DNA from: Escherichia coli
GTDB lineage: Bacteria > Pseudomonadota > Gammaproteobacteria > Enterobacterales > Enterobacteriaceae
Strand: one strand, 5' to 3'
Assembly (NCBI RefSeq): GCF_011045215.1
Contig: NZ_CP049201.1
Length of the DNA stretch: 64,000 bases
Shown here one piece after another: positions 6,640 to 54,276 of the stretch. A program made the position numbers and the translations under genes. The notes under the pieces are model-generated. The model had not been told where the DNA came from, did not search any database, and saw only the letters and a program-made list of their open reading frames with translations. How positions within the stretch are numbered: position 1 is the stretch's first letter; the number at the start of each line of letters is the position of its first letter.

Positions 6640-7404
6640 TTACTTACCAGAGGCGATACGATCACGGATGTGTTGCGCACGCTCTGTTGATGGTGGGTGA
6701 GAGTCAAACATGGACTGGGTGCGACCGCCATCCAGGCTAGCCAGTTTTTCAAAGCTGCCAACCAGCCCCTGGGTGCTGATGCCACGTTTCTTCAACAGAT
6801 CAAAGGAGAAATCATCTGCTTCGGACTCTTTATCGCGGGAGTATTTCGCATTGATAGCGCCTTCTGCGATATCACCCAATTGTGAGCGGGAAAGCTGGGA
6901 AGCCACACCGCTGGTAGCTGAAATGGCATCGCGTGCGGCAACGATCGCATAAGAAGCTTTCATTTCAGCCAGCGAGTGACCCAACGCGACGTGGCCCAGT
7001 TCATGGCCCAGAACGCCTTCAATTTCGTTATCGTTCATCATGTCCATCAGGCCACTGTAAACACGAACACAGCCGTTCGCCATCGCCCATGCGTTGACGT
7101 CGCTGGTCATATAAACCTTATAGTTGACCGGCGTGCCATTAATATTGTTACCCAATGCTTTGGCGATTTTTGCCAGACGTTTACCGTACTTGCTGGATTT
7201 ACTTGCGACTTGATTGCCGCTGTCCATTTCGGCACAGCCCTGATTGGCAATCGCTTTTGCATCGGCATCGCTTAATGTTGCTGCTTTATAGGCATTTAAA
7301 CCGGAGCTGATAGCCATATTGGTATCAATACCGTGGGTATTTTGACACCCCGACAGTAATGCTGCAGAGGTCACAATCGCCAGCAGTAATTTAGTATTCT
7401 TCAT
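6640..7404 (-). CDS. ycaL: M48-family metallopeptidase lipoprotein YcaL
   Basis: ORF 6640..7428; probable start at the internal MKNTKLLLAIVTSAALLSGC (lipobox LSGC); HELGHVALGH zinc-binding motif. Confidence 0.85.
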   Translation of the reverse strand: MKNTKLLLAIVTSAALLSGCQNTHGIDTNMAISSGLNAYKAATLSDADAKAIANQGCAEMDSGNQVASKSSKYGKRLAKIAKALGNNINGTPVNYKVYMTSDVNAWAMANGCVRVYSGLMDMMNDNEIEGVLGHELGHVALGHSLAEMKASYAIVAARDAISATSGVASQLSRSQLGDIAEGAINAKYSRDKESEADDFSFDLLKKRGISTQGLVGSFEKLASLDGGRTQSMFDSHPPSTERAQHIRDRIASGK

Positions 7405-7572
7405 GTGAATCATCCGTTGATTAATCATATATAAATATTATGTATCAACAACTTACATTGACAACTGACGCTACCATTAATCAAAATGACTCACAAGGTC
7501 CGAAAAAAAACGCCGGCAATGTGCCGACGTTTTGATAAAGAAAGTTTTGGCTATTTATTGGACGTTATTCAT

Positions 7573-8856
7573 TCAGGCTGCCTGGCTAATCCGCGCCAGC
7601 TGCTCGAAATAATCCGGAAATGTTTTGGCCGTACATTTGGGATCAAGAATCGTCACTGGTGTATCTGACAACGCCACCAGCGAAAAACACATCGCCATCC
7701 GGTGATCATTGTATGTCGCGATCTCGGCAAAGTTCAGTTTTTCCGGTGGAGTGATACGAATGTAATCGTGCCCCTCTTCTACTTCCGCACCGACTTTACG
7801 CAGTTCTGTTGCCATCGCAAACAGGCGATCGGTTTCTTTAACACGCCAGTTATAGATATTGCGCAGCGTGGTGGTGCCTTTTGCAAATAACGCCGCCGTG
7901 GCAATGGTCATCGCCGCATCAGGAATATGGTTCATATCCATATCAATAGCGTTCAGTTCACCACGCGTGCAGGAAATATAATCATCGCCCCAGCAAATGG
8001 TCGCGCCCATTTTTTCCAGCACATCAGCAAAGCGAATATCACCCTGCATACTGTTACGTCCAATACCGGTCACTTTTACAGTGCCGCCTTTGATTGCTGC
8101 TGCTGCCAGAAAGTAAGAAGCCGAAGATGCATCGCCTTCGACCAAATAAGTACCCGGAGACTGATAAGACTGCCCGCCTTTTACGACAAATTGTTGATAG
8201 TGCTGATTTTCAATTTCAACACCAAACGTCTTCATCAGATTGAGTGTGATGTCGATATAAGGTTTAGAAACCAGATCGCCTTTAATACGAATCACCGTAT
8301 CTTCCGGCGCAAGAGGCGCAGTCATTAACAGTGAGGTGAGGAATTGGCTGGAAACGGAGCCATCAACGTCAACGTTGCCGCCAGTAAAGCCGCCCTGTAA
8401 ACGCAACGGCGGATAATTTTCTTGTTCCAGGTAAGTGATCTTCGCCCCGCCCAGGCGCAGCGCATCCACCAGATGACCAATCGGGCGCTCTTTCATACGC
8501 GGCTCACCGGTCAGCACAATATCATTGCTACCCAGACAAAGAGCTGCCGCCAGCGGACGCATCGCCGTTCCGGCGTTACCGAGGAACAACTCCAGGGCAC
8601 CTTCTGCGTGTAATGGACCGCCGTTACCGATAATTTCGCAACGTGTACGATCGGCTGAAAGCGTATAGCTTACCCCTAACGCTGTTAATGCATTCAGCAT
8701 ATGGCGCACGTCATCGCTATCCAGCAGATTGGTTAATACTGTTTTGCCGTGTGCTAATGCCGCCAGCAATAAAGCGCGGTTAGAAACGCTCTTGGAACCG
8801 GGCAGATTAATAGTGCCATCGACACGAGCGATGGGTTGTAACGTCAGGGATTCCAT
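7573..8856 (-). CDS. aroA: 3-phosphoshikimate 1-carboxyvinyltransferase (EPSP synthase)
   Basis: 427-aa [38 protein letters not shown]... matches AroA; serC-aroA operon synteny. Confidence 0.97.
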
Positions 8857-8885
8857 GAACTCAACTCTCTACAACAGAAATAAAA

Positions 8886-8912
8886 ACCCCACAGGCTGGC
8901 TGTGGGGATTAA
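8886..8912 (-). terminator. Hairpin plus T-run between serC and aroA (serC-aroA attenuator/terminator; approximate)
   Basis: CCCCACAG-gctg-CTGTGGGG palindrome followed by a T-run on the minus strand, just 3' of the serC stop. Confidence 0.5.
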
Positions 8913-8926
8913 GCAAAATTTCGGCA

Positions 8927-10015
8927 TTAACCGTGACGGCGTTCGAACTCAACCATGAAGTCTGTCAGCGCTTTAACGCCTTCCAGCGGCATGGCATTAT
9001 AAATAGACGCGCGCATTCCGCCGACCACACGGTGACCTTTCAGTGCATGAAGGCCTGCAGCAAAAGACTCTTCAAGGAACAATTTGTCAAGCGCACTGTC
9101 AGCCAACTGGAACGGCACGTTCATCCGCGAACGGTTAGCTTTCGCCACGTCATTGCGGTAGAAATCGCTGTTATCAATCACCCCATATAGCAGTTCTGCT
9201 TTTTGCTGATTGATTTTATCCATTTCAGCTACACCGCCGTTCGCTTTCAGCCATTTAAAGACCAGACCAGATAGATACCAGGCAAATGTCGGCGGCGTGT
9301 TAAACATGGAGCCGTTATCGTTGAGGATGGAATAATCCAGAATCGACGGACACGCGACATTCGCTTTGCCCAGCAAATCTTCACGGACGATGACGATTGT
9401 CAGGCCTGCCGGGCCGATATTTTTCTGCGCGCCAGCGTAAATTACACCATAACGGCTGACGTCAATCGGACGGGAAAGAATGGTTGAAGAGAAGTCGGCG
9501 GCGACCACCACATCTTTGCCGAAGTCTGGCGTTTCGTCGATGGCGATACCGTCGATGGTTTCATTCGGGCAGTAATGCATATAAGCAGCATTATCAGAGA
9601 GTTGCCATTCACGCATTGGCTTAACCGCGCGCAGACCATCAACAGTCACTTTGGCGTCAAAGACATTAGGCGTGCAGTATTTTTTCGCTTCTTTAATGGC
9701 ACTTGCCGCCCAGTAACCGGCATCAACATAATCTGCGGTGGTTTTATCACCGAGAATATTCAGCGGTACCGCAGCAAACTGACCGCGACCACCGCCATGG
9801 CAGAATAATACCTTGTAGTTGGAGGGGACATTAAGAAGATCGCGAAAATCCTTCTCGGCTTCCTCTGCAACCTGAATGAACTCTTTGCCACGGTGACTCA
9901 CTTCCATCACCGACGTACCAAGACCGTTCCAGTCGCGCAGTTCCTGTTGAGCCTGTTTAAGCACCTCTGCCGGTAGCATTGCCGGACCAGAACTAAAATT
10001 GAAGATTTGAGCCAT
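8927..10015 (-). CDS. serC: Phosphoserine aminotransferase
   Basis: 362-aa [49 protein letters not shown]... matches SerC. Confidence 0.97.
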
Positions 10016-10213
10016 TTCCCCTCACCACGTTGCGTTGCTATTAACCCGCGGTCAATCGATTGCGACCACAGGTAATACATTATTCCTGTGGCTATCGGTT
10101 TTATCATTCAGTGACACACATCGCAATGAGTAAAACCGTTGAGGGCAAAAATGTGGCTTGCATCACACAAAAGAATCTCTCGGATTATTAGCAAAAAGCC
10201 GATGTTTTTACTG

Positions 10214-10906
10214 TCAGGTCACCCGTTTTGCCCGACTTGCCTTCGTCCATTCTGGGTTTGCACAGCGCGGACATAATTGTTTTTCCCCCGCTTTCATATG
10301 AATGATTTCACTACAACGAATACAGGCATAGTCCGCCGACTCCGGCACCACTTTGTAACGCTGCGTACAATCACTGGGTAAAATAAGTAAACCCGATTTC
10401 ACCTTGTCATCTTCAAAGAAATAGACACTGATTTGCCCGTTGGTTTCGAGAATCGCCAGACGTACCTGCCCCAGCTGCTCCACGCCACGCAATCGTAGCT
10501 CCATAAAGAACTCAAATTCCGTCATGTTGGAGTTATTGAGTTTCGACCAGGCCAGCTCGCCATCTTCAATAATGACAACTGGCTTGCCTTCCAGAAGATC
10601 TTCCAGTTTTTCACTGTGCGCCATCAACCACATTACCAGGCGGTATAACAACGCCAGAGTAATAAAGACGATAAGTACCGGGACCATCGGCACATCATCA
10701 TAAAACGCCACATCTCCCGCCGCTGATCCCAGCGTCAGAATGATTAAAACTTCAAACAGCGACATCTGCCGCACACCGCGTCTTCCGGTCATTTTGAGGA
10801 ACAAAAAGACCAGTACAAAGGTATAAAGACTACGTAGTGCAACTTCGCCAAGGAAATCAAAAGGCACTTTATCAAATGCCATACGGTGGAGATCGAACGC
10901 CTTCAT
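10214..10906 (-). CDS. ycaP: DUF421-family inner membrane protein YcaP
   Basis: 230-aa ORF with N-terminal transmembrane segments; position between serC and ycaO as in K-12. Confidence 0.8.
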   Translation of the reverse strand: MKAFDLHRMAFDKVPFDFLGEVALRSLYTFVLVFLFLKMTGRRGVRQMSLFEVLIILTLGSAAGDVAFYDDVPMVPVLIVFITLALLYRLVMWLMAHSEKLEDLLEGKPVVIIEDGELAWSKLNNSNMTEFEFFMELRLRGVEQLGQVRLAILETNGQISVYFFEDDKVKSGLLILPSDCTQRYKVVPESADYACIRCSEIIHMKAGEKQLCPRCANPEWTKASRAKRVT

Positions 10907-11035
10907 TTTTATGCTCTTAACGTGGTTTATCCGCTAAAAGCATAGTCAACAGTTCATCGGCATGGCGGCGGTGATAGCGCCTTTGAGATAAAACCCGTAT
11001 TATTGCGCGCTTTCCGTACGACTAAAGTGATTTTC

Positions 11036-40106: not shown

Positions 40107-40194
40107 GGTGAGGTGTCCGAGTGGCTGAAGGAGCACGCCTGGAAAGTGTGTATACGGCAACGTATCGGGGGTTCGAATCCCCCCCTCACCGCCA
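40107..40194 (+). tRNA. serW: tRNA-Ser (GGA anticodon, serW-type), 88 nt with long variable arm
   Basis: GGTGAGGTGTCCGAGTGGCTGAAGGAGCACGCCTGGAAAGTGTGTATACGGCAACGTATCGGGGGTTCGAATCCCCCCCTCACCGCCA read directly; coordinates anchored to ORF 40121, which starts at tRNA position 15. Confidence 0.9.
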
Positions 40195-45064: not shown

Positions 45065-45338
45065 GATCTGCTCCTTATGAATGATTAAGCGGTATAAATG
45101 AAAAAGCCGCAGCTCCCGGAGAAGACGCGGCCTGATGGATGATGTTTATTGTCTGAGGTACCCTTCACGGGCGGGCCACGCATTAAGCTGTTATGACAGC
45201 AACCGCCTGCCCGTATGAGAAAGATCCTTCAGCCAGGACATACTCTGTGTAACCCGGCATATCTGTTTTCTCCTGATAAATAAAAAGCCTCTGCCACGCG
45301 TTGTGACAGAGGCTGAAGCATGAAACTGACTTCAGGGA

Positions 45339-45794
45339 TCAGTTAACGTTTTTTCCGGAAACGGTAATTAGCAGTGGATGGTAGTCCTGGGGATCGAAAA
45401 CCGATAACGGCAGACTGACACGATGGCCGTTACTTTCTTCAGTTGCTTTAATGATTTCGGTTGTGGCGACATTTTCCACGCACTCCGTTTCCAGAAATGC
45501 GTCTGTGGTTCGCGTGGCATCACTGTCACCAAAGGCTTCCGTTTCCATTTTTCTGGTCACCAGCCTCTGACCATATTTGTCTTTGAGTTGCAGAGTGATG
45601 GTGAGGGGGCCAAATCCTTCTCCGTTTCCGCCATTATCCAGCCGGAACTGGTAAGCACAAATATTTCCCGGGAGCCATATCGTATCTGTATTGCGTATAC
45701 TGATGTAACGTTGATCCTGTGCCCGGAGTGGGGCAGACCACGTTAACCCCAGAATGACGCCGGTAATAATGCAGGTTTTGAACAGGTGAATCAT
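45339..45794 (-). CDS. Putative secreted/lipoprotein-like small protein (CP4-like module)
   Basis: 151-aa ORF with N-terminal signal peptide MIHLFKTCIITGVILGLTWSAPLRA. Confidence 0.45.
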   Translation of the reverse strand: MIHLFKTCIITGVILGLTWSAPLRAQDQRYISIRNTDTIWLPGNICAYQFRLDNGGNGEGFGPLTITLQLKDKYGQRLVTRKMETEAFGDSDATRTTDAFLETECVENVATTEIIKATEESNGHRVSLPLSVFDPQDYHPLLITVSGKNVN

Positions 45795-45869: not shown

Positions 45870-48392
45870 TTATGCCGGTAACTCCGGGGGTAATGCTTCT
45901 TCCAGCCGGTTAACCATATTGCCGAGATGGGATGCATCATATTCCATGACGGGGCGTTGCCTGATGATACTGACCACCAGTGGTTTGATTAACATATTGG
46001 TCGCGGCCCGTTGTTGTATACCGGCGGCGAAAATGATCTCCAGAGCATTCTGATCGATAACACGGGCCAGATTCGCGTTCAGATTTTCTGTTTCATGTCC
46101 GGTCAGCAGGAAACTGCCGGCAAGCCATGTCACCTGTTCCTGAATCATTGCCAGAATTTTGACGCGATCTTCTTCAACCAGCGCTCCGGCAATTTTTCCT
46201 GATACAGCGGAGGCAATCATTCCCCCCAGAACACCGCCAACCACACGCCCTGTCAGTGCACCAAATGGTCCCAGTGGACTGAACAGTATCCCGCCCGCCA
46301 CTGACCCGACAGCTCCACCTGCCACACCGGAAGATGCCACGGCAAGATTCCTGATGAACTGCGTACCGGAGATCCGTCCCCGCAACATTTTGATCATGTC
46401 AGGGCCGGTTGTGACAGCTACCAGTGCCAGAGATGTCACCAGCGTACCCTTCATCACTTTGTTCAGGGCACTGATATTTCCTGCACCGGTCCCCTTCTGA
46501 AGAGCCAGTCGGACAGTCGGGCTGGCAGTCGAAAAATCAATGTGCTTCAGCATACCCTGAACAACACTGAGCCGGTGGAGTTGCTGGGTTGTGACGTAGA
46601 CAGCCAGTGTGCGGGTGAAGGTTTTTCCTGCCTGGACAGCAGCTGTCTGCAGAGCAGCATCGCGATCGCCGGTGCTGAGCCAGAAGACCGATGCCGTCAG
46701 GGCAAAACTGATCCCTCCGGCCGCCAGACTGACAACCGAACCCTCGGCAATATCATAAGTGACCGATTCGATGGTCCCGAACCGGGTGATATTACGGGCC
46801 TGAGTATAAGTCAGATGTCCCCGACGAATCAGCCGGGACGCTTCTGCGGGATCGATTACACCGGGTACTTTACCTTCGCGGATCTTATTCCTCATGGTTT
46901 CAACAGCGCCGGCATACTGATCACGGGGGACTTCCAGTTGCATGGGGCCATTATTTCCCATGTAACGATACTGTCCGTTTTGTCCGTCGAATGCCGCACC
47001 GACGCTACGGGCTGCAGTTGAACAATATTTCGTCTGGATTTCTGTTCCGCTGACCAGTCTGTCTGCTCCATTTCTGGCATTATTATCACCGAGGATCCGT
47101 GCGTTTTTCAGACGGATTCTGTCGACAATATGGTTTCCCCGTTCAGCGGCAAACCCATGTCCCTGCCCTCCGGAAGCAAACATTTTCTCATTTGTACTCC
47201 AGGTTTCCGGCAGTTTCATGAGAATCAGACCATTCGCCGTTGCATCGGAAATAAAACTGTTGTAGGGGCGTTCATAAATTTCCTGACACAGTGTTTCTGT
47301 TTCGCGACAAAGAGAGGAGCAGTACCATTCCGGATCCGGCTTATGATTTTCCGGGGCATGATGTACTTCTGTCAGCCCGCAGGAGGCACAGACACGAAGC
47401 TCATCCACGTGATGGAATGATACAAAACGGCGACCTTCTGAAAAGGGATACCAGTCACCGCCGTCCAGGCAACGATCGAGAAAATCGTCATTCGCTTCCG
47501 GTGATAAATTCAGGCGGTTCCGGAAGAGTGTTTTCAGTTCATCAGGTGTGAATGACAGGTTCTCTTTCAACTGTTCGTTAAACCCTGCCATGTTTCTTTC
47601 ATACCAGGCATTGTTCAGTAACCAGTTTCCGTCTGCCAGTTCAAATTCCCTCAGCTCTCCCCGGGAAATCCGTTGAGAAATAAGCGTCAGCCAGATGCGC
47701 TCCGTCAGTGAGTCAGGAAGGCTGTAATCGTTTTGCAAACTGGTCAGCCACGATTTACTGTTGAGCACCGGTTGTTCTTCCAGTGTCTGGCTGATGGCAC
47801 AGGTCAGTTTTTTCAGCGCCTGGATTTGGCTGGCCGCCCATAGCAGCGTCACTAATGCAGCCAGCCAGTACAACAACCCGCCCCACCACATCAGTGACGG
47901 TGAAATATCGTACTGTAACGCGATCAATGGTGCGCATGCAGAACAAGCCATAAGGAAAAAGGCAGTATAAAAACAGCAGTAATATCCGTTAATTTCCTTG
48001 CTGATATCTTCTGGTGTGATCCCGTTCTGCTGAATGTTTTTGATCTGCAGGGGAACAGCCAGCAGACCACCGGCGAGAGCGGTGGTCAGAATAAATTTCA
48101 CGGAGTCAAAGGTGTGAGACTCCAGCGCAATATGTTTACCATCAAGTCCCCACATGAAGCTGATGATCATTCCGGCAATCGTCAGAAATACGCCTGCCAG
48201 CCAGCGAATATGGAACAACCGGGTTATGCGTTCGGTGATATAGCCAGCCAGTAAGGCCGGGCCGAACAGACACAGCAATATGAGCCCTGCCAGCGCAGAA
48301 GCCGTGCTGATTAATGCTCTGAACAAAAGGCGAAGAATGGCAAATCCTGCGATCAGCAGGATCAGCGCGCCGACTATCTGTAACATAGTCAC
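45870..48392 (-). CDS. yeeR: YeeR-like large inner membrane protein
   Basis: 840-aa ORF with multiple TM segments at both ends; located between the Ag43 gene and the DUF932/antirestriction genes as in CP4-44-type elements. Confidence 0.7.
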   Translation of the reverse strand: MTMLQIVGALILLIAGFAILRLLFRALISTASALAGLILLCLFGPALLAGYITERITRLFHIRWLAGVFLTIAGMIISFMWGLDGKHIALESHTFDSVKFILTTALAGGLLAVPLQIKNIQQNGITPEDISKEINGYYCCFYTAFFLMACSACAPLIALQYDISPSLMWWGGLLYWLAALVTLLWAASQIQALKKLTCAISQTLEEQPVLNSKSWLTSLQNDYSLPDSLTERIWLTLISQRISRGELREFELADGNWLLNNAWYERNMAGFNEQLKENLSFTPDELKTLFRNRLNLSPEANDDFLDRCLDGGDWYPFSEGRRFVSFHHVDELRVCASCGLTEVHHAPENHKPDPEWYCSSLCRETETLCQEIYERPYNSFISDATANGLILMKLPETWSTNEKMFASGGQGHGFAAERGNHIVDRIRLKNARILGDNNARNGADRLVSGTEIQTKYCSTAARSVGAAFDGQNGQYRYMGNNGPMQLEVPRDQYAGAVETMRNKIREGKVPGVIDPAEASRLIRRGHLTYTQARNITRFGTIESVTYDIAEGSVVSLAAGGISFALTASVFWLSTGDRDAALQTAAVQAGKTFTRTLAVYVTTQQLHRLSVVQGMLKHIDFSTASPTVRLALQKGTGAGNISALNKVMKGTLVTSLALVAVTTGPDMIKMLRGRISGTQFIRNLAVASSGVAGGAVGSVAGGILFSPLGPFGALTGRVVGGVLGGMIASAVSGKIAGALVEEDRVKILAMIQEQVTWLAGSFLLTGHETENLNANLARVIDQNALEIIFAAGIQQRAATNMLIKPLVVSIIRQRPVMEYDASHLGNMVNRLEEALPPELPA

Positions 48393-48506: not shown

Positions 48507-51356
48507 TCAGAAGGTCACATTCAGCGTGGCCTGACCGTTATAGCCTTCGGCGCTGTTGCCGCTGACACTGTGGGCATAACCGGCCTGAACGCCCAGGGTG
48601 ATATTTTCCCGGACACGGGCTTCCAGTCCGGCCTGCAGGTCCAGTGACGTGCCATTCCGGGACGGTGAAAACGTCATGTTACTGCCGGCGGCGGCTGTAC
48701 CCATGCTCATGTCACCCCGGGAGCTGAAAGTGCGGATAACAGAAGGCTGTACCCACCAGTTCACCGGCAGTTCACTCACACGGTGTTTTGCACTGTCGCG
48801 CAGAGTGTCACGGGATGAGGTGCCTTCGCCAAAAGTCATATCGTTGTGGCTGCCCAGACGGAAGCCGGCACGCACATGTTGTGCACTGCCATGCCCGAAC
48901 TTCACATAACCGGCGTTATCCTGGCCGTCATCCAGGGAGAGCCCCTGCCAGGTGTACTGCAGTTGTGGCTCCAGCATCAGGTTGTCAGTGATACTGAAGG
49001 GCAGACCGGTTTCCAGTGAGCCCAGCCAGCCCCAGCCCCGGGCGCGGAAGTCGTTATTGTCCGATGACGCTTTCATGCTGTGGCGGGTTCCCTGGGCCAC
49101 AATGTCAGCCCACAGGCCGGAGGACGTGTGTACCAGATTCAGGTATCCGCCCAGGCTGCCGGCATCATCCCGGACCGTGCCGGCACGGGAGCCGTCATCA
49201 TCCTTAACATCAACGGAAGAATGGCCAGCAGCACCATACACTCCTGTCGTCAGTGACATACCGGCAACCTCTGTTCTCAGCAGGTCACCCTCCAGACGGA
49301 CGAGGCCATAGCTGCCGCTGCTTTCCGGCGTGGCCCCACGGGCAATACCACCGTTGTTATCGTGCCCGAGATGACCGCCCTGAATGCTGAGACGGACGCT
49401 GTTATTTTCACCGCTTACACCGGTCTGATGGCTGCGGGAACCTGCCAGAATCCGGTCATAGTCCATTGCCTGTGTCAGCATGGAGGCATACAGGGGGACT
49501 TCAGCACGATAAGCATTTTCACTGCGCAGGTACCAGTCTTCATCGCTGTCACGGTTCAGGGTGTAGTTAAAGGCGCCGGCCTGAAGCGGGCGACTCAGGG
49601 CAAACGCACCTTCTTCTGTGGTAGCACCATTCTGTGCATCCACAACCCGGATACCCTGTCCGGAGGTTGCCACCCCGAGGTTACTGTTTCCGACATTTGT
49701 AAACGCAAGCCAGGTTTTGCCGGTTGCCTGACCACCATTAATCACCAGCTGGTCAGAGGCATTACTGCCATCAAGGCTGACACGCATATTGATGGTGCCG
49801 CCCTGGCCGGTGAGGTTCGTGGTGGTTAGTTTATGGAACGTTACCGGGGAGTTACTTTTTGCAACAGCACGGCTCAGCGCGGCATCCGGTGTCGTCTGAT
49901 TATCAAAGTGAATCTCTCCTGCGTTAATAATATCGCCGGTACTGACCACATCACCATTCAGTACCATACTGGCGCCTTTACTGAGCTGTGTTCTGCCACT
50001 CAGACTTCCCCCGGCAGCCAGCGTCAGTGTTCCACGATGTCCGACAGTGGTGTTGCTGGCCAGTCCTCCGGCATTAACCGTAAAGCTGCCGCCATTTTCC
50101 AGCAGCAGGCCGCTGGCCTGACCGGATATGCCATCAATACTGAACTTACCGCTGGCATTGGTCCCCTCAACAGTGGCACCACTGTCTGCAATCAGGGCAC
50201 CACCGGATGTCATGGTGACATCTGTTGCCTTACCACCGGCAGACACTGCCAGGGTACCGCCGTCATCCACCAGTGTTTTCCAGGCTGAATGGCCCTCCAG
50301 TACATCCAGGCGACCGCCGGACTCCAGAACAACGCCGTCAGCCTTACCGTTTTCCACTGTGAAATTCCCCAGGCGGTTTGTGCCGGTGACAGTTGCAGCA
50401 GTACTGGTAACCAGTGCACCGCCCGTGTTCTGGGTGACTGCAGTGGCTTCCCCGCCGGCATGTACCCTCAGTTCACCGTTCTGATTTATGGTGGTGTTAC
50501 CGGCAGCGCCACCGGCCTTAACAACCTGCCAGCCCCCCTCGTTAATTACCGTGTTCAGCGCCAGTCCGTCCTTGTGCACATACTGGTAACCGCCATTCAG
50601 TGTGGTATTCAGGGCCCTTCCGTGTACCGACTGGTCACCACCTGCGTAAATGAGAGTGTCACGGGCTATCCCGGAAGATAAGATAATCTGCCGTCCATTT
50701 TTGTTGATGGTGGTGGATTCTGCTGTTCCCTGGACCTTCTGACCCGTGTACGAGTTGTCAGAATCCGGGCCGCCTTCTGCGCCGGTGTTGATGATGGTTC
50801 CTGTTGCCAGCCCGCCACTTTTAACGCTCTGGTAACCGTCGCGGTTGATAATTGTACCGGTGGCAACCCCGCCCTCATGAACCCACTGCTCGCCTCTGTT
50901 ATTCAGCGTGGTGTTCACCGCCAGCCCGTTCAGGCTCTGTCCCCCGCCGTCACGAATAACCGTATCACTGGCTGTTCCCCCCTCCAGCACGACCTGACGA
51001 CCATTTGTGGTGACAGTGGTGTTTCCGGCTATCCCGCCATTCTGTATCCATTGCCCACCGGTGTTTTCTTCACTGTCCGGCCCCAGTTCCAGCCCGGTAC
51101 TGATGGTCATTCCGTTGGCCGTACCGAGGACAATCTGGTTGTCATGATTTGTCAGTGTTCCGCCGCTCATGGTTTCTCCCGCCTGTACAACCGTGTCAGC
51201 AGCCAGTGCCGGGACTGACGTGACAGCAGCAAGAGACAGCGCAACCGCCACACCGGTGCGTTTTCCCCGTGAGCGGGCCAGTTCGGAGGCCACCACCAGG
51301 GTGCCCGTAATGTGATTCCATACCAGCCTGTAGCTGGTGTTCAGATGTCGTTTCAT
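48507..51356 (-). CDS. flu: Antigen 43-type self-associating autotransporter adhesin
   Basis: ORF 48507..51431; real start at the internal MKRHLNTSYRLVWNHITGTLVVASELARSRGKR (extended autotransporter signal peptide); passenger repeats; C-terminal beta-barrel ending ...GYNGQATLNVTF. Confidence 0.9.
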   Translation of the reverse strand: MKRHLNTSYRLVWNHITGTLVVASELARSRGKRTGVAVALSLAAVTSVPALAADTVVQAGETMSGGTLTNHDNQIVLGTANGMTISTGLELGPDSEENTGGQWIQNGGIAGNTTVTTNGRQVVLEGGTASDTVIRDGGGQSLNGLAVNTTLNNRGEQWVHEGGVATGTIINRDGYQSVKSGGLATGTIINTGAEGGPDSDNSYTGQKVQGTAESTTINKNGRQIILSSGIARDTLIYAGGDQSVHGRALNTTLNGGYQYVHKDGLALNTVINEGGWQVVKAGGAAGNTTINQNGELRVHAGGEATAVTQNTGGALVTSTAATVTGTNRLGNFTVENGKADGVVLESGGRLDVLEGHSAWKTLVDDGGTLAVSAGGKATDVTMTSGGALIADSGATVEGTNASGKFSIDGISGQASGLLLENGGSFTVNAGGLASNTTVGHRGTLTLAAGGSLSGRTQLSKGASMVLNGDVVSTGDIINAGEIHFDNQTTPDAALSRAVAKSNSPVTFHKLTTTNLTGQGGTINMRVSLDGSNASDQLVINGGQATGKTWLAFTNVGNSNLGVATSGQGIRVVDAQNGATTEEGAFALSRPLQAGAFNYTLNRDSDEDWYLRSENAYRAEVPLYASMLTQAMDYDRILAGSRSHQTGVSGENNSVRLSIQGGHLGHDNNGGIARGATPESSGSYGLVRLEGDLLRTEVAGMSLTTGVYGAAGHSSVDVKDDDGSRAGTVRDDAGSLGGYLNLVHTSSGLWADIVAQGTRHSMKASSDNNDFRARGWGWLGSLETGLPFSITDNLMLEPQLQYTWQGLSLDDGQDNAGYVKFGHGSAQHVRAGFRLGSHNDMTFGEGTSSRDTLRDSAKHRVSELPVNWWVQPSVIRTFSSRGDMSMGTAAAGSNMTFSPSRNGTSLDLQAGLEARVRENITLGVQAGYAHSVSGNSAEGYNGQATLNVTF

Positions 51357-51573
51357 CAGCTTTTCCTTACAGAGGGTGAATAAAAAAGCCGGTACCCACA
51401 AATGTGGATACCGGCAGGTACAAAACAGCATGGTCAGATAAAGTGGTTTTTCCCGGACATAAATGCTTCCCCTCTCTCATCCGCCAGAGAAGTATCAGTC
51501 CGTTGTGTGCAATTCCGTTCTGCATGATGAAGAGATTCAGCTGCCTTTTCGCAGGCCATTAACCACTACAAAC

Positions 51574-51727: not shown

Positions 51728-52600
51728 TCAGAAGAAAATCCAGTTCCATACCGCACGGGCAACAGAGACCACCGTGTCACGAACAGCGCGCAGGGCCGTA
51801 CGGACAACAGAGGCAACACAGACGCTCTCCGCTGTGTCAAATATCCGGTCCACCGCACCGGTAAACTGTTCACGGGCCTGAGAGCGGACAGATTCCGTGC
51901 GCAGCTCGTCCTGCAGTCGGGTCATCAGGGGACTGGCGGCATGGTCGGGAAGCGCTGTCATGAGCGCACTGACCAGCGTATCCAGTTCCCAGCCGGTGCG
52001 GGCCGATACGGCCACAACCGGATGTGCGGGCCGGAACAGACGGAATACCGCCTCCGTTTTTTCGCGAATGTTCCGTGCCTGTGCGGGAGAGGGCTGAATG
52101 CCGGCCATATCCCATTCATGGCAGGGCTCCGTTTTGTCGGCCTGCGTCACCACAAACAGCACCTGCTGATGTCCCCGGTGCAGGATGTGTCGCCAGAAAT
52201 ACTCATCCACAGACAGGGCACGGTCATCGGCTTTAATCAGCCACAGTACCAGGTCAAGTTCAGGCAGAATGTCACGGTACAGGGCTTCATACTCTGCATC
52301 CCTGTCCCGGCTCTCGCCCACCCCGGGCAGGTCAGTGATAACCATGCTGTGACCGTGGCCACTCAGACGGAAGCGCTGCACTTCCCGGGTGCCGGCGTGA
52401 ACATCACTGACCGGGGTGACCTCCCCCTGAAACAGTGCATTACAGAGTGAGGATTTACCGGCCCCGCTTTTACCCATAATGCCAATCACGGGTTCGTGAC
52501 TGGTGAGTTTGCGCAGATGTTCCAGGATGTGACGGGAAAGTGAGTAAGGCAGGGAGGAGAGCGGTTTTTCAATTGCCTCAATGGCATCAGACGGATTCAT
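51728..52600 (-). CDS. yeeP: YeeP/YkfA/YfjP-family GTPase
   Basis: ORF 51728..52639; P-loop GKSGAGKSS and DLPG G-motifs; probable start MNPSDAIEAIEKPLS. Confidence 0.8.
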   Translation of the reverse strand: MNPSDAIEAIEKPLSSLPYSLSRHILEHLRKLTSHEPVIGIMGKSGAGKSSLCNALFQGEVTPVSDVHAGTREVQRFRLSGHGHSMVITDLPGVGESRDRDAEYEALYRDILPELDLVLWLIKADDRALSVDEYFWRHILHRGHQQVLFVVTQADKTEPCHEWDMAGIQPSPAQARNIREKTEAVFRLFRPAHPVVAVSARTGWELDTLVSALMTALPDHAASPLMTRLQDELRTESVRSQAREQFTGAVDRIFDTAESVCVASVVRTALRAVRDTVVSVARAVWNWIFF

Positions 52601-52930
52601 ACATGTATTCCCGGTGAAAAAAGACAAAACCCCGCGCACCGGAAAGGTGGCGGGGGATTCACGGAGATAATATCTGCCTGAAATTATTTAGGATGCAGGT
52701 ATCTTCAGATAATCATACCTCCAGAATTTTGTTCTTAATAGTTGAGTAGTGGTATTTGGTTTCCCTGAGAGAATATAAAGGTGAATCATACTGTATTGAG
52801 TTTGATTCTATTTGTACTGAGACAGGTATCTTCATGATTATAATCAAAAGTCGGGTGGATTGGTCTGGCGCTCATTATTTTTTCGAATAAACTCACTAAT
52901 TATTGTAACCATCCCAGAGGAGATGATTTT

Positions 52931-53113
52931 ATGTATAATTGTGGTGAATCATATTCAGAATACGACATATCATTATCTGACGATGAAAACTATAACGATG
53001 ACTATTATCGTGAACGCCCGTGCCCGGGAGAAGTTTTCGGCTATGATAATACTGAGGATAATGATGAGGCGGCATCTGATTATGCACTAAAAATAAATGA
53101 AAACTCTGATTAA
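52931..53113 (+). CDS. Hypothetical small, highly acidic protein (60 aa)
   Basis: ORF MYNCGESYSEYDISLSDDENYNDDYYRERPCPGEVFGYDNTEDNDEAASDYALKINENSD preceded by a GAGGAG Shine-Dalgarno about 8 nt upstream; AT-rich context. Confidence 0.35.
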   Translation: MYNCGESYSEYDISLSDDENYNDDYYRERPCPGEVFGYDNTEDNDEAASDYALKINENSD

Positions 53114-53251
53114 TACGAGGTGGCTGATAATAAGACAATCAATGACAAATATTAATGAATAAACATAATCAGGCGCTCAATACTTGATTTAATCTGGGCG
53201 CCTGATTAAAATCTGAGGTAACATATAATAATTTTCATCAAAATAGTATTT

Positions 53252-54276
53252 ATGTGTGTGATTCATAGACATCGTTTCAATTTTCTCAGCTCAAGTTCAA
53301 GCTTGTAATTCTGTTCCTGAATATGCTCCTTATTGGGCTGATAGCTTGCGTGAACGGCATCCGAGTATGGCGTTTTCTCAGCAAGTTCAAAGTAGCGCTC
53401 CATCGGCGTTTTACCGTTGTGAGCGCAATGAGGACGTTCCCAGTTATAGTAATGCTGCCATTCTGCCAGTCGCTCCTCCAAGTTATCAGTAGCGATATCT
53501 ACGGTAGCGTAAAACTCAGCTTTGTCTGTCTTTTGGGAGCGTTCAACTTTGCCATTAAGATGGGGTGATGCTGGTTTATTTGGACGAAACTTGATGCCGT
53601 ATTCTTTCAGTCTTTCCTGCACCTTAACGGCAAAAAACTCTCTTCCCCGGTCTGTCTGAAAGCGCTGAATCGGGAACGGCATTTCTTCAATAAAACAATC
53701 AATGAAATCCAGTGTGTTTGTAGTCGTGCGACGGGAATAGAGCCTCAGAACTCTGTAGCGAGTGCAATCATCAACAGATGTGTACTGATATAAGCCGGGG
53801 CCAATTTTACAGGTATCCATCTGAACCCAATCACCGGGAACAGGGCGTTCGTAGCGAATGAAATCAGCTTTACGCCGGAGTTTAACAACAGGTTTAACCT
53901 GATTCTGGCAAAGAACTTTGTGGATTGTTGCCATTGCAAGTGAGATTGAATGAAGTCGTTTTAACTCGCTTTGAATCCGTCTTGCACCCAGATTTCGCTG
54001 GGAACGTAACTCCAGAATCAGAGCGACTTCGCAAGTGCCGGTTTTCGTTGATGGCGAACGCTTAGGGCGACGGCTGTGGCTTTCCAGACCAGCGATGCCC
54101 TGAGCCAGATATCTGCGCCACCATTTACGCAATGTGGGGCGGGAAATACCGCAGCGACGGCATACGAACCCCGCGTCACCAGACGTTTCATAGAGTTTTA
54201 CCCACTGTAGCCGCTGCTGAATTTCCCTGTTCATAGTAAGGCATTATAGTGAAACGATGTCTATGAATCACACAAG
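53252..54276 (-). mobile_element. Compact ~1.0 kb insertion sequence with one DDE transposase gene and ~24-bp perfect terminal inverted repeats (tentatively IS481-like)
   Basis: Terminal repeats TGTGTGATTCATAGACATCGTTTC and its reverse complement flank the transposase ORF; family assignment is tentative. Confidence 0.75.
53263..54234 (-). CDS. DDE (rve-type) transposase
   Basis: 323-aa ORF with N-terminal HTH (CGISRPTLRKWWRRY) and an integrase-core-like central region. Confidence 0.85.
   Translation of the reverse strand: MNREIQQRLQWVKLYETSGDAGFVCRRCGISRPTLRKWWRRYLAQGIAGLESHSRRPKRSPSTKTGTCEVALILELRSQRNLGARRIQSELKRLHSISLAMATIHKVLCQNQVKPVVKLRRKADFIRYERPVPGDWVQMDTCKIGPGLYQYTSVDDCTRYRVLRLYSRRTTTNTLDFIDCFIEEMPFPIQRFQTDRGREFFAVKVQERLKEYGIKFRPNKPASPHLNGKVERSQKTDKAEFYATVDIATDNLEERLAEWQHYYNWERPHCAHNGKTPMERYFELAEKTPYSDAVHASYQPNKEHIQEQNYKLELELRKLKRCL

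Follow-up and report, generated by a model that had tools for sequence, protein, structure and literature searches.

YeeR, a Membrane Protein of the agn43 Operon of Escherichia coli with a Predicted PD-(D/E)xK-Like Domain and a Candidate Role in Mobile-Element Conflict

Introduction

In uropathogenic Escherichia coli, agn43 (flu), yeeR, and irmA form a single transcript that is repressed by OxyR, and the product of the middle gene, YeeR, was termed uncharacterized (PMC4807369). In strain 042, irmA also has a promoter of its own (PMC9431211), and in K-12 yeeR is truncated and irmA is lost (PMC6480617). We analyzed computationally the intact yeeR gene present in a 64,000-nucleotide stretch of the E. 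coli contig NZ_CP049201.1 (assembly GCF_011045215.1), which we call the window. The gene is already known and catalogued. It is among the commoner accessory genes of E. coli without a function, although it lies inside the well-studied virulence operon encoding the autotransporter Ag43 and the interleukin-receptor mimic protein A (IrmA). The K-12 reference holds only a stump of it, which is probably why it was ignored.

Three other described systems are relevant for comparison. SNIPE is a membrane-anchored GIY-YIG nuclease that cleaves the DNA of phages while it is being injected (10.1101/2025.11.03.685801). PDC-M09, a PADLOC candidate made up of proteins A and B, is one of 145 phage defense candidates embedded in BREX, DISARM, or type I restriction–modification systems (10.1101/2024.01.29.577857). 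In the Eleos system, the C-terminal part of LeoB includes a predicted membrane-binding domain (PMC4159319). Our literature search, which included DefensePredictor and a lactococcal defensome paper, returned nothing relevant tying YeeR to defense, phage, or nuclease, or treating PDC-M09.

We show here that YeeR combines a polytopic membrane anchor with a modular C-terminal half, YeeR_C, that contains an invariant set of residues whose predicted arrangement resembles that of a nuclease active site, and that YeeR orthologs in Enterobacter and Serratia are encoded next to PDC-M09. The explanation that we favor, and that we advance tentatively, is that YeeR might act in mobile-element conflict or defense, as a nuclease-type effector tethered to the membrane, rather than as a helper of Ag43. 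Only this mechanistic hypothesis and the link to PDC-M09 are new.

yeeR Is an Intact Gene under Purifying Selection

Like all features described below unless otherwise indicated, yeeR is on the minus strand. Its maximal open reading frame (ORF), 45870..48392, comprises 840 uninterrupted codons from a GTG, exactly as given in the initial annotation, and is far longer than expected by chance. The start nevertheless requires correction. The ATG at codon 3 (48386) is preceded at 5 nt by a GGAG Shine–Dalgarno sequence, which the upstream GTG directly abuts. RefSeq models of yeeR begin at this ATG and predict an 838-aa "hypothetical protein". The representative P0001 of a cluster of 15,556 member sequences is likewise 838 aa long and is 98% identical to the window protein with full coverage. 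On these three grounds, the likely coding sequence is 45870..48386, encoding 838 aa.

A match to yeeR with 99% identity is found in 2,587 of the 5,426 complete E. coli genomes (48%), and 1,800 genomes (33% of the complete ones) carry at least 80% of the gene in one place. Compared with an allele showing 96.4% identity, the ratio of nonsynonymous to synonymous substitution rates (dN/dS) amounts to 0.195 for the whole gene and to 0.08 for its C-terminal part. This prevalence and the low dN/dS indicate that yeeR is a real protein-coding gene under purifying selection.

The window gene is the intact form of yeeR, as previously proposed. The K-12-type yeeR matches its nucleotides 1–1527 only, at 99.2% identity, that is, codons 1–509, in agreement with the shorter K-12 copy mentioned in the initial annotation (see also PMC6480617). 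Homologs of 820–850 aa with 40–47% identity and 94–99% coverage are encoded by Methylomonas, Shewanella, Pseudomonas, Herbaspirillum, Cupriavidus, and Colwellia, and those of Enterobacter and Serratia are 62–69% identical to the window protein. The full architecture is thus maintained across several proteobacterial orders at 40–68% identity. This conservation rules out a fusion artifact of two genes, one of the two findings that, according to the initial annotation, would have overturned it. The other was a match to a family of assigned function: searches of the full protein against Pfam, NCBIfam, PHROGs, and PDB sequences gave nothing usable and no such family, and YeeR can still be called uncharacterized, as in PMC4807369.

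The YeeR_C Module Contains a Predicted PD-(D/E)xK-Like Domain

P0001 and nearly all homologs are annotated with PF27347 (YeeR_C) in precomputed tables, and their alignment with the window protein places this module at residues ~400–833. This C-terminal half, and not the cysteine region on which attention had first focused, is the conserved part that defines the family. YeeR_C is an autonomous module: proteins of 470–550 aa consist of it alone, and in others it follows Sel1 repeats, repeated zinc ribbons, or an N-terminal domain like that of BnzA, or precedes TM2 or DUF805 domains. With the N-terminal 330 residues as query, in search of other effectors joined to the anchor, we retrieved E. coli fragments only.

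We modeled the full-length protein with AlphaFold2 on the basis of a 62-sequence alignment (mean predicted local distance difference test [pLDDT] score of 81). At the start of YeeR_C, residues 400–545 (46758..47195) likely have a PD-(D/E)xK, or restriction-endonuclease-like, fold. The predicted model possesses the alpha-beta-beta-beta-alpha-beta core characteristic of this superfamily, and its elements follow the canonical order alpha1(E417)-beta1-beta2(D444)-beta3(Q453xK455)-alpha-beta4. Eleven polar or aromatic residues are strictly invariant in all 62 aligned sequences: H412, E417, D424, D444, R445, Q453, K455, Y477, E487, P489, and D491. Among these, E417, D444, and K455 occupy the expected elements, and the third motif is Q453-x-K455 instead of (D/E)-x-K. 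The E/D/QxK combination is the active-site variant of TnsA, in which QxK is active. The same Q453-x-K455 motif may also be compatible with an inactive domain. The top Foldseek matches, although not significant, are enriched for this fold and include PspGI, Hjc, VRR_NUC, CdiA-CT, and I-Ssp6803I. As no sequence-profile method ties the domain to a nuclease family, we consider the fold likely and the nuclease activity putative. The profile of the nuclease-like domain gave weak matches to L7Ae and NrfA among PDB sequences, which we rejected as chance matches, and no nuclease; that of the entire YeeR_C module retrieved from the PDB only glycine-rich matches (a tape measure protein and SlyB).

Some YeeR_C Genes Lie near PDC-M09 or in Mobile or Defense Loci

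An exhaustive profile search among 1.84 billion cluster representatives identified 1,037 clusters, of which 875 scored below E = 1e-10, so that the family is fairly rare and has sharp limits. By scanning one genome per species (100,044 species), we confirmed 290 relatives. The family was found in Proteobacteria, many Firmicutes, Campylobacter, Fusobacterium, Lentisphaerae, and Riflebacteria. yeeR is not a phage or plasmid gene: we found a single match in 50,697 records of phages and only 11 in 72,556 records of plasmids, several of the latter being megabase-sized, so that the family is almost missing from true plasmids.

In Enterobacter and Serratia, the YeeR gene is the last of a tight same-strand cluster in the order WYL–PDC-M09A–PDC-M09B–YeeR. 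We identified this cluster at four loci with different flanks (L004, L015, L018, and L022, at about 6760–12530), in which the YeeR ortholog is 67% identical to the window protein. The two middle proteins match their models with E = 3e-120 (PDC-M09A) and 5e-214 (PDC-M09B), and the adjacent M09A and M09B genes that make up PDC-M09 are thus encoded directly upstream of YeeR orthologs. Moreover, PDC-M09B is itself a distant full-length homolog of standalone YeeR_C proteins (best E = 2e-11). The window YeeR gives weak and partial matches to the M09B model (E about 1e-6 to 1e-5, with individual matches at 9e-6 and 1e-4), covering residues 578–733. With WYL before and YeeR after it, the PDC-M09 unit of Enterobacter and Serratia may comprise four genes and not two. 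A contig of the Firmicute Pseudobutyrivibrio (L054 2882-7896) shows M09A close to a canonical YeeR_C gene standing in place of M09B.

Thirteen further loci have a WYL regulator gene upstream of YeeR_C. The WYL and YeeR_C genes also form part of an IS6-flanked cassette on a conjugative plasmid of lactococci. Across several phyla, YeeR_C stands as a single gene in islands and mobile elements; the settings in other lineages comprise islands, integrative or mobilizable elements, and toxin–antitoxin or defense neighborhoods. Their neighbors include XRE regulators, recombinases, relaxases, integrases, HepT–MNT pairs, AbiGi, DUF4062, and Dnd genes, as well as HicAB and a TIR protein. The N-terminal domain of Bunzi BnzA also occurs in some YeeR_C members, and the neighbors include TerB proteins. 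In Firmicutes, an unannotated protein of ~534 aa is encoded directly downstream of YeeR_C in 10 loci (e.g., L054 4458-6062), an unannotated protein of ~127 aa directly upstream in nine, and a small TerB-domain protein upstream in four; further examples of such partner loci are L047 9057-9440 and L036 9134-9553. The statement that YeeR is always next to Ag43 holds for E. coli only: elsewhere, an Ag43 homolog is encoded near 2 of 87 nonredundant loci.

Architecture of YeeR outside the Nuclease-Like Domain

The initial annotation described clusters of transmembrane segments at both termini. This is correct for the N-terminus, where residues 1–206 (47775..48392) form a polytopic membrane anchor according to hydropathy and to predicted helices with pLDDT 84–97. 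Hydrophobic segments at 1–32, 19–54, 59–85, 97–118, 138–161, and 166–190 correspond to about six helices, the number of passes and their orientation being only approximate. It is only roughly right for the C-terminal half, in which the hydrophobic segments are at 551–572 and 717–739 and the last ~100 residues are predicted to form soluble helices.

The region between the anchor and the C-terminal segments had been viewed as one large soluble region, possibly a metal-binding domain with several cysteine pairs. The model instead predicts a pair of winged helices, a small zinc ribbon, and the PD-(D/E)xK-like domain. The two tandem winged-helix-like domains span residues 207–334 (47391..47774), as judged from the predicted helix and strand pattern at 209–334. 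The Foldseek matches of the full-length model in the PDB are the ESCRT-II tandem winged helices 3cuq_B and 2zme_B together with viral or archaeal winged helix-turn-helix proteins, with probabilities of 0.94–0.99 but E values of 0.08–0.3; the remaining matches are noise from helical membrane proteins. The cysteine pairs do exist. They form a Cys4 zinc-ribbon-like motif at residues 335–369 (47286..47390), consisting of C335, C338, C358, and C362, followed by C369. The C335-x2-C338 ... C358-x3-C362 pattern is conserved in 42 of 43 full-length homologs, and C369 in 40 of 43. This FCS/TRASH-like pattern is matched by no Pfam model, and judging from the motif it plausibly binds zinc. A short family member, P0078, carries N-terminal repeats of the same C-x2-C...FCS-x2-C pattern.

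Downstream of the nuclease-like domain, a helical stalk extends over residues 546–675 (46368..46757), with predicted helices at 541–574, 577–606, and 640–670, of which one, at 551–572, is strongly hydrophobic. It is followed by a glycine zipper at residues 676–739 (46176..46367; pLDDT <50), a predicted membrane-inserting segment whose glycine-rich stretch includes the hydrophobic segment 717–739. The protein ends with a helical domain at residues 740–840 (45873..46175), which closes YeeR_C, is predicted as helical from 740 to 833 with pLDDT 73–90, and contains the conserved residues D742, E767, and R813.

The glycine zipper raises the alternative that YeeR is a membrane-damaging protein, comparable to an abortive-infection or toxin-like effector, whose zipper and hydrophobic stalk respond to a trigger by opening or depolarizing the inner membrane, with the PD-(D/E)xK-like domain, the winged helices, and the zinc ribbon serving only to sense nucleic acid or a phage protein. 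The zipper is conserved throughout the family. In the window protein, it weakly matches the Pfam families C19orf12 and YidB, and in other members Gly-zipper_Omp, DUF1269, and C19orf12; the family's matches also include bacteriocin IIc and the glycine-rich regions of phage tape-measure proteins. PDC-M09A likewise combines coiled coils with a membrane segment rich in glycine and alanine, and both the TerB proteins and the N-terminal domain of BnzA point to a theme of "membrane surveillance" (10.1101/2022.05.11.491447). Many E. coli alleles are deleted or truncated, as expected for a costly protein. However, eleven invariant residues arranged like a nuclease active site are more than a sensing surface usually needs. 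In addition, about one-third of the complete E. coli genomes encode full-length YeeR with a dN/dS of 0.2, so that the protein is not strongly toxic when regulated, and no immunity or antitoxin partner is conserved beside YeeR_C genes. We regard membrane damage as unlikely, though less so than the alternatives discussed below.

A Proposed Role at the Inner Membrane

In the mechanism that we propose, the anchor and the glycine zipper would hold YeeR at the inner membrane, its soluble part presumably lying in the cytoplasm. The winged helices and the zinc ribbon would bind nucleic acid or a trigger, and the PD-(D/E)xK-like site would cut nucleic acid that appears there, for example conjugative DNA or the injected DNA of a phage, following a SNIPE-like logic. 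E. coli would have captured yeeR into the phase-variable, OxyR/Dam-controlled agn43 operon, so that YeeR would be made only in Ag43-ON cells, and it would not be needed for the function of either Ag43 or IrmA. A broader and more doubtful extension of this hypothesis is that YeeR_C and PDC-M09B together represent an unrecognized superfamily of membrane-associated PD-(D/E)xK nucleases that, under WYL regulation, would counter phages or plasmids at the inner membrane and that in E. coli would be coupled to the Ag43 phase.

Several points weigh against a nuclease-type effector. Sequence and profile searches in Pfam, NCBIfam, PHROGs, and the PDB placed the domain in no nuclease family, and the replacement by Gln of the usual Asp/Glu in the third motif means that the domain could be a binding module and not an enzyme. 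The defense role is suggested through guilt by association, by way of PDC-M09, which is itself a candidate. By tblastn, neither M09A nor M09B is encoded in the window, and the E. coli copy is also without the WYL regulator. We found no universal operon partner, the 149 immediate neighbors of YeeR_C genes belonging to 117 Pfam families. In some Pseudomonas species, the YeeR gene occupies a fixed chromosomal site flanked by genes for a TonB receptor and a chemotaxis-type kinase. The loss of the nuclease-like domain from several E. coli alleles through in-frame deletions (see below) implies that intact YeeR is dispensable. Finally, no YeeR phenotype has been reported.

If the proposal is true, about one-third of the complete E. 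coli genomes carry an effector switched together with Ag43 by Dam/OxyR phase variation, and the aggregating Ag43-ON cells are also the protected ones. Its confirmation would establish a second, unrelated membrane-tethered nuclease defense after SNIPE and would tie defense against phages and mobile elements to phase-variable aggregation; if it is refuted, yeeR stays an ordinary island passenger. The hypothesis is now specific, with E417, D444, Q453, and K455 as candidate catalytic residues, the zinc ribbon, the glycine zipper, and the physical link with PDC-M09.

The agn43 Operon and Its Island

The gene had been assigned to a CP4-type island beside Ag43, and it is indeed the middle gene of agn43–yeeR–irmA in a CP4-44-type island. 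Upstream, flu/agn43 (48507..51356) encodes a protein with the Pfam domains ESPR, AIDA, AC_1, and Autotransporter, the likely start being the methionine of MKRHLN. Downstream, irmA (45339..45794) encodes a protein matching the Pfam family IrmA (E = 9.8e-39). A hairpin followed by a T-run after irmA (45286..45314), a pattern match from a consensus scan, is the sole terminator-like site from the end of flu to the end of irmA. The same-strand neighbors are a YeeP-type GTPase and Ag43 upstream, and IrmA, DUF932, antirestriction, RadC, and YeeT/YeeU/CbtA proteins downstream. The annotations of other E. coli strains show an identical gene order.

This organization is an argument for considering YeeR an accessory factor of the operon, involved in adhesin biogenesis, in the control of aggregation, or in IrmA release. 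The three genes are cotranscribed under OxyR repression (PMC4807369), with no terminator-like site between them. Furthermore, in Serratia sp. UGAL515B_01 (L096 8163-11520), an IrmA-family gene is directly upstream of YeeR in a CP4-like island devoid of Ag43, and the linkage between YeeR and IrmA is therefore older or more stable than that with Ag43. Against such a function, K-12, in which Ag43-mediated aggregation has classically been studied, holds only a truncated YeeR. The family also occurs in Proteobacteria, Firmicutes, Campylobacter, Lentisphaerae, and other groups without Ag43 or IrmA. IrmA was found in the supernatant of a strain lacking both functional Ag43 and YeeR (PMC4807369), and in strain 042 irmA can be expressed from its own promoter (PMC9431211). 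Because IrmA release is independent of YeeR, the K-12 protein is truncated, and the family is widespread without both neighbors, we consider this the least probable of the explanations.

The YeeP-type GTPase (51728..52639; Pfam MMR_HSR1 and Dynamin_N) is a context gene belonging to the island backbone. In PADLOC, it matches the GTPase part of LeoBC (E = 1.6e-8) and LeoA (E = 1.6e-4); its homolog in the Enterobacter island likewise matches the LeoBC/LeoA GTPase models. YeeR might thus be the membrane-remodeling partner of YeeP in a split pair resembling Eleos (LeoA/LeoBC), its stalk and paddle binding the membrane and YeeP contributing the GTPase activity. In support of such a pair, the C-terminal part of LeoB (profile positions 431–556 of 568) matches the glycine-zipper region and the following helices of 20 of 38 YeeR_C proteins, and the islands of E. 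coli, Enterobacter, and Serratia all encode YeeP-type GTPases. These LeoB matches are weak, however, and lie in glycine-rich, compositionally biased sequence, and the window YeeR itself has none. The GTPase gene belongs to the conserved island backbone, is located beyond flu or on the opposite strand, and is found near only 6 of 92 YeeR_C loci, all in enterobacterial or Vibrio islands. These observations make an Eleos-like pair improbable.

Several other features of the island were observed. A tRNA-Ser(GGA) gene (40107-40194, plus strand) marks its edge, adjoining the DUF4942/CbtA end. Its position fits an island of the serX/serW-associated kind, such as the PAI-CFT073-serX mentioned in PMC4807369. 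In the agn43 leader, a strong 12-pair hairpin followed by a T-run (51388-51415) lies just upstream of the likely Ag43 start; terminator-like by its pattern, it could be an attenuator or a processing site. Upstream of yeeP, a 323-aa ORF (53263-54234) with a helix-turn-helix and the look of an integrase core, by eye an IS481-like transposase, lies in an AT-rich stretch (GC about 0.40 at 52500–53500).

Allelic Variation and Decay of yeeR in E. coli

About 30% of the E. coli genomes with yeeR hold only partial copies. Breakpoints or deletions are seen in the proteins P0018, P0020, P0004, P0003, and P0021. The nuclease-like motifs have been removed by in-frame deletions in P0004, which lacks residues 313–459, and in P0003, which lacks roughly residues 393–485; a larger in-frame deletion removed residues 245–524 in P0021. 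Fusion ORFs join YeeR(1–509) to RadC or to DUF932. Some strains carry IS3 insertions between flu and yeeR or a 5'-truncated pseudogene. The K-12 truncation, the YeeR–RadC fusion, and the YeeR–DUF932 fusion, which are independent alleles, share a breakpoint after ...KIREGKV (codon ~509, window 46860-46870), and a CCCGG/ACCCGG microhomology is common to this breakpoint and to the radC start.

These alleles might indicate that yeeR no longer has a function in E. coli and is decaying as the passenger of a cryptic island. The frequency of partial copies, the recurrent in-frame deletions, the IS elements that separate flu from yeeR, and the RadC and DUF932 fusions all agree with such a view (see also PMC9431211). 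On the other hand, 80% or more of the gene is retained in 1,800 genomes, the dN/dS values of 0.2 for the whole gene and 0.08 for the C-terminal part are low, and the architecture is kept at 40–68% identity across orders. We regard a functionless passenger as improbable. The intact protein is possibly costly, and this pattern of decay is as compatible with a defense- or toxin-type gene as with simple decay of the island.

Comparison with Known Systems

YeeR of K-12 (b2001, in the CP4-44 cryptic prophage) is the same gene as that of the window, 99.2% identical over nucleotides 1–1527. The two islands share the order GTPase, Ag43, YeeR, (IrmA), DUF932, antirestriction, RadC, YeeT/U, and CbtA, with irmA lost in K-12. 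By lacking codons 510–840, the K-12 copy has lost the end of the nuclease-like domain, the stalk, the glycine zipper, and the C-terminal domain.

The resemblance to Eleos is twofold. The glycine-rich membrane-binding region of LeoB and the helices that follow it resemble the stalk and zipper of many YeeR_C members, and the LeoA/LeoBC-like GTPase YeeP is encoded in the same island as yeeR. The window YeeR nevertheless differs in having neither a GTPase domain nor a match to LeoB or LeoBC, and it does not belong to this system.

With SNIPE, YeeR would share a logic, that of an anchor, a nucleic-acid-binding part, and a nuclease facing the cytoplasm, and no homology. SNIPE is composed of a single transmembrane helix, DUF4041, and a GIY-YIG domain, whereas YeeR combines about six transmembrane helices, winged helices, a zinc ribbon, a PD-(D/E)xK-like domain, and a glycine zipper; in Pfam, the window protein matches neither DUF4041 nor GIY-YIG.

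The predicted core fold and element order match those of PD-(D/E)xK nucleases, among them Hjc/YraN-type minimal nucleases, CdiA-CT toxins, type II restriction enzymes, and TnsA. The likeness consists of an acidic residue in helix 1, an Asp before strand 2, and an x-K in strand 3. Pfam defines PF27347 as a family without an assigned function, and its division into a PD-(D/E)xK-like domain, a stalk, and a zipper is proposed here from the predicted structure.

PDC-M09B, as a distant homolog, lacks the N-terminal half of YeeR with its transmembrane segments, winged helices, and zinc ribbon, and it keeps the motifs HG..AE, D, QSK, and PKD, which match the H/E/D/QxK/PxD residues of YeeR_C.

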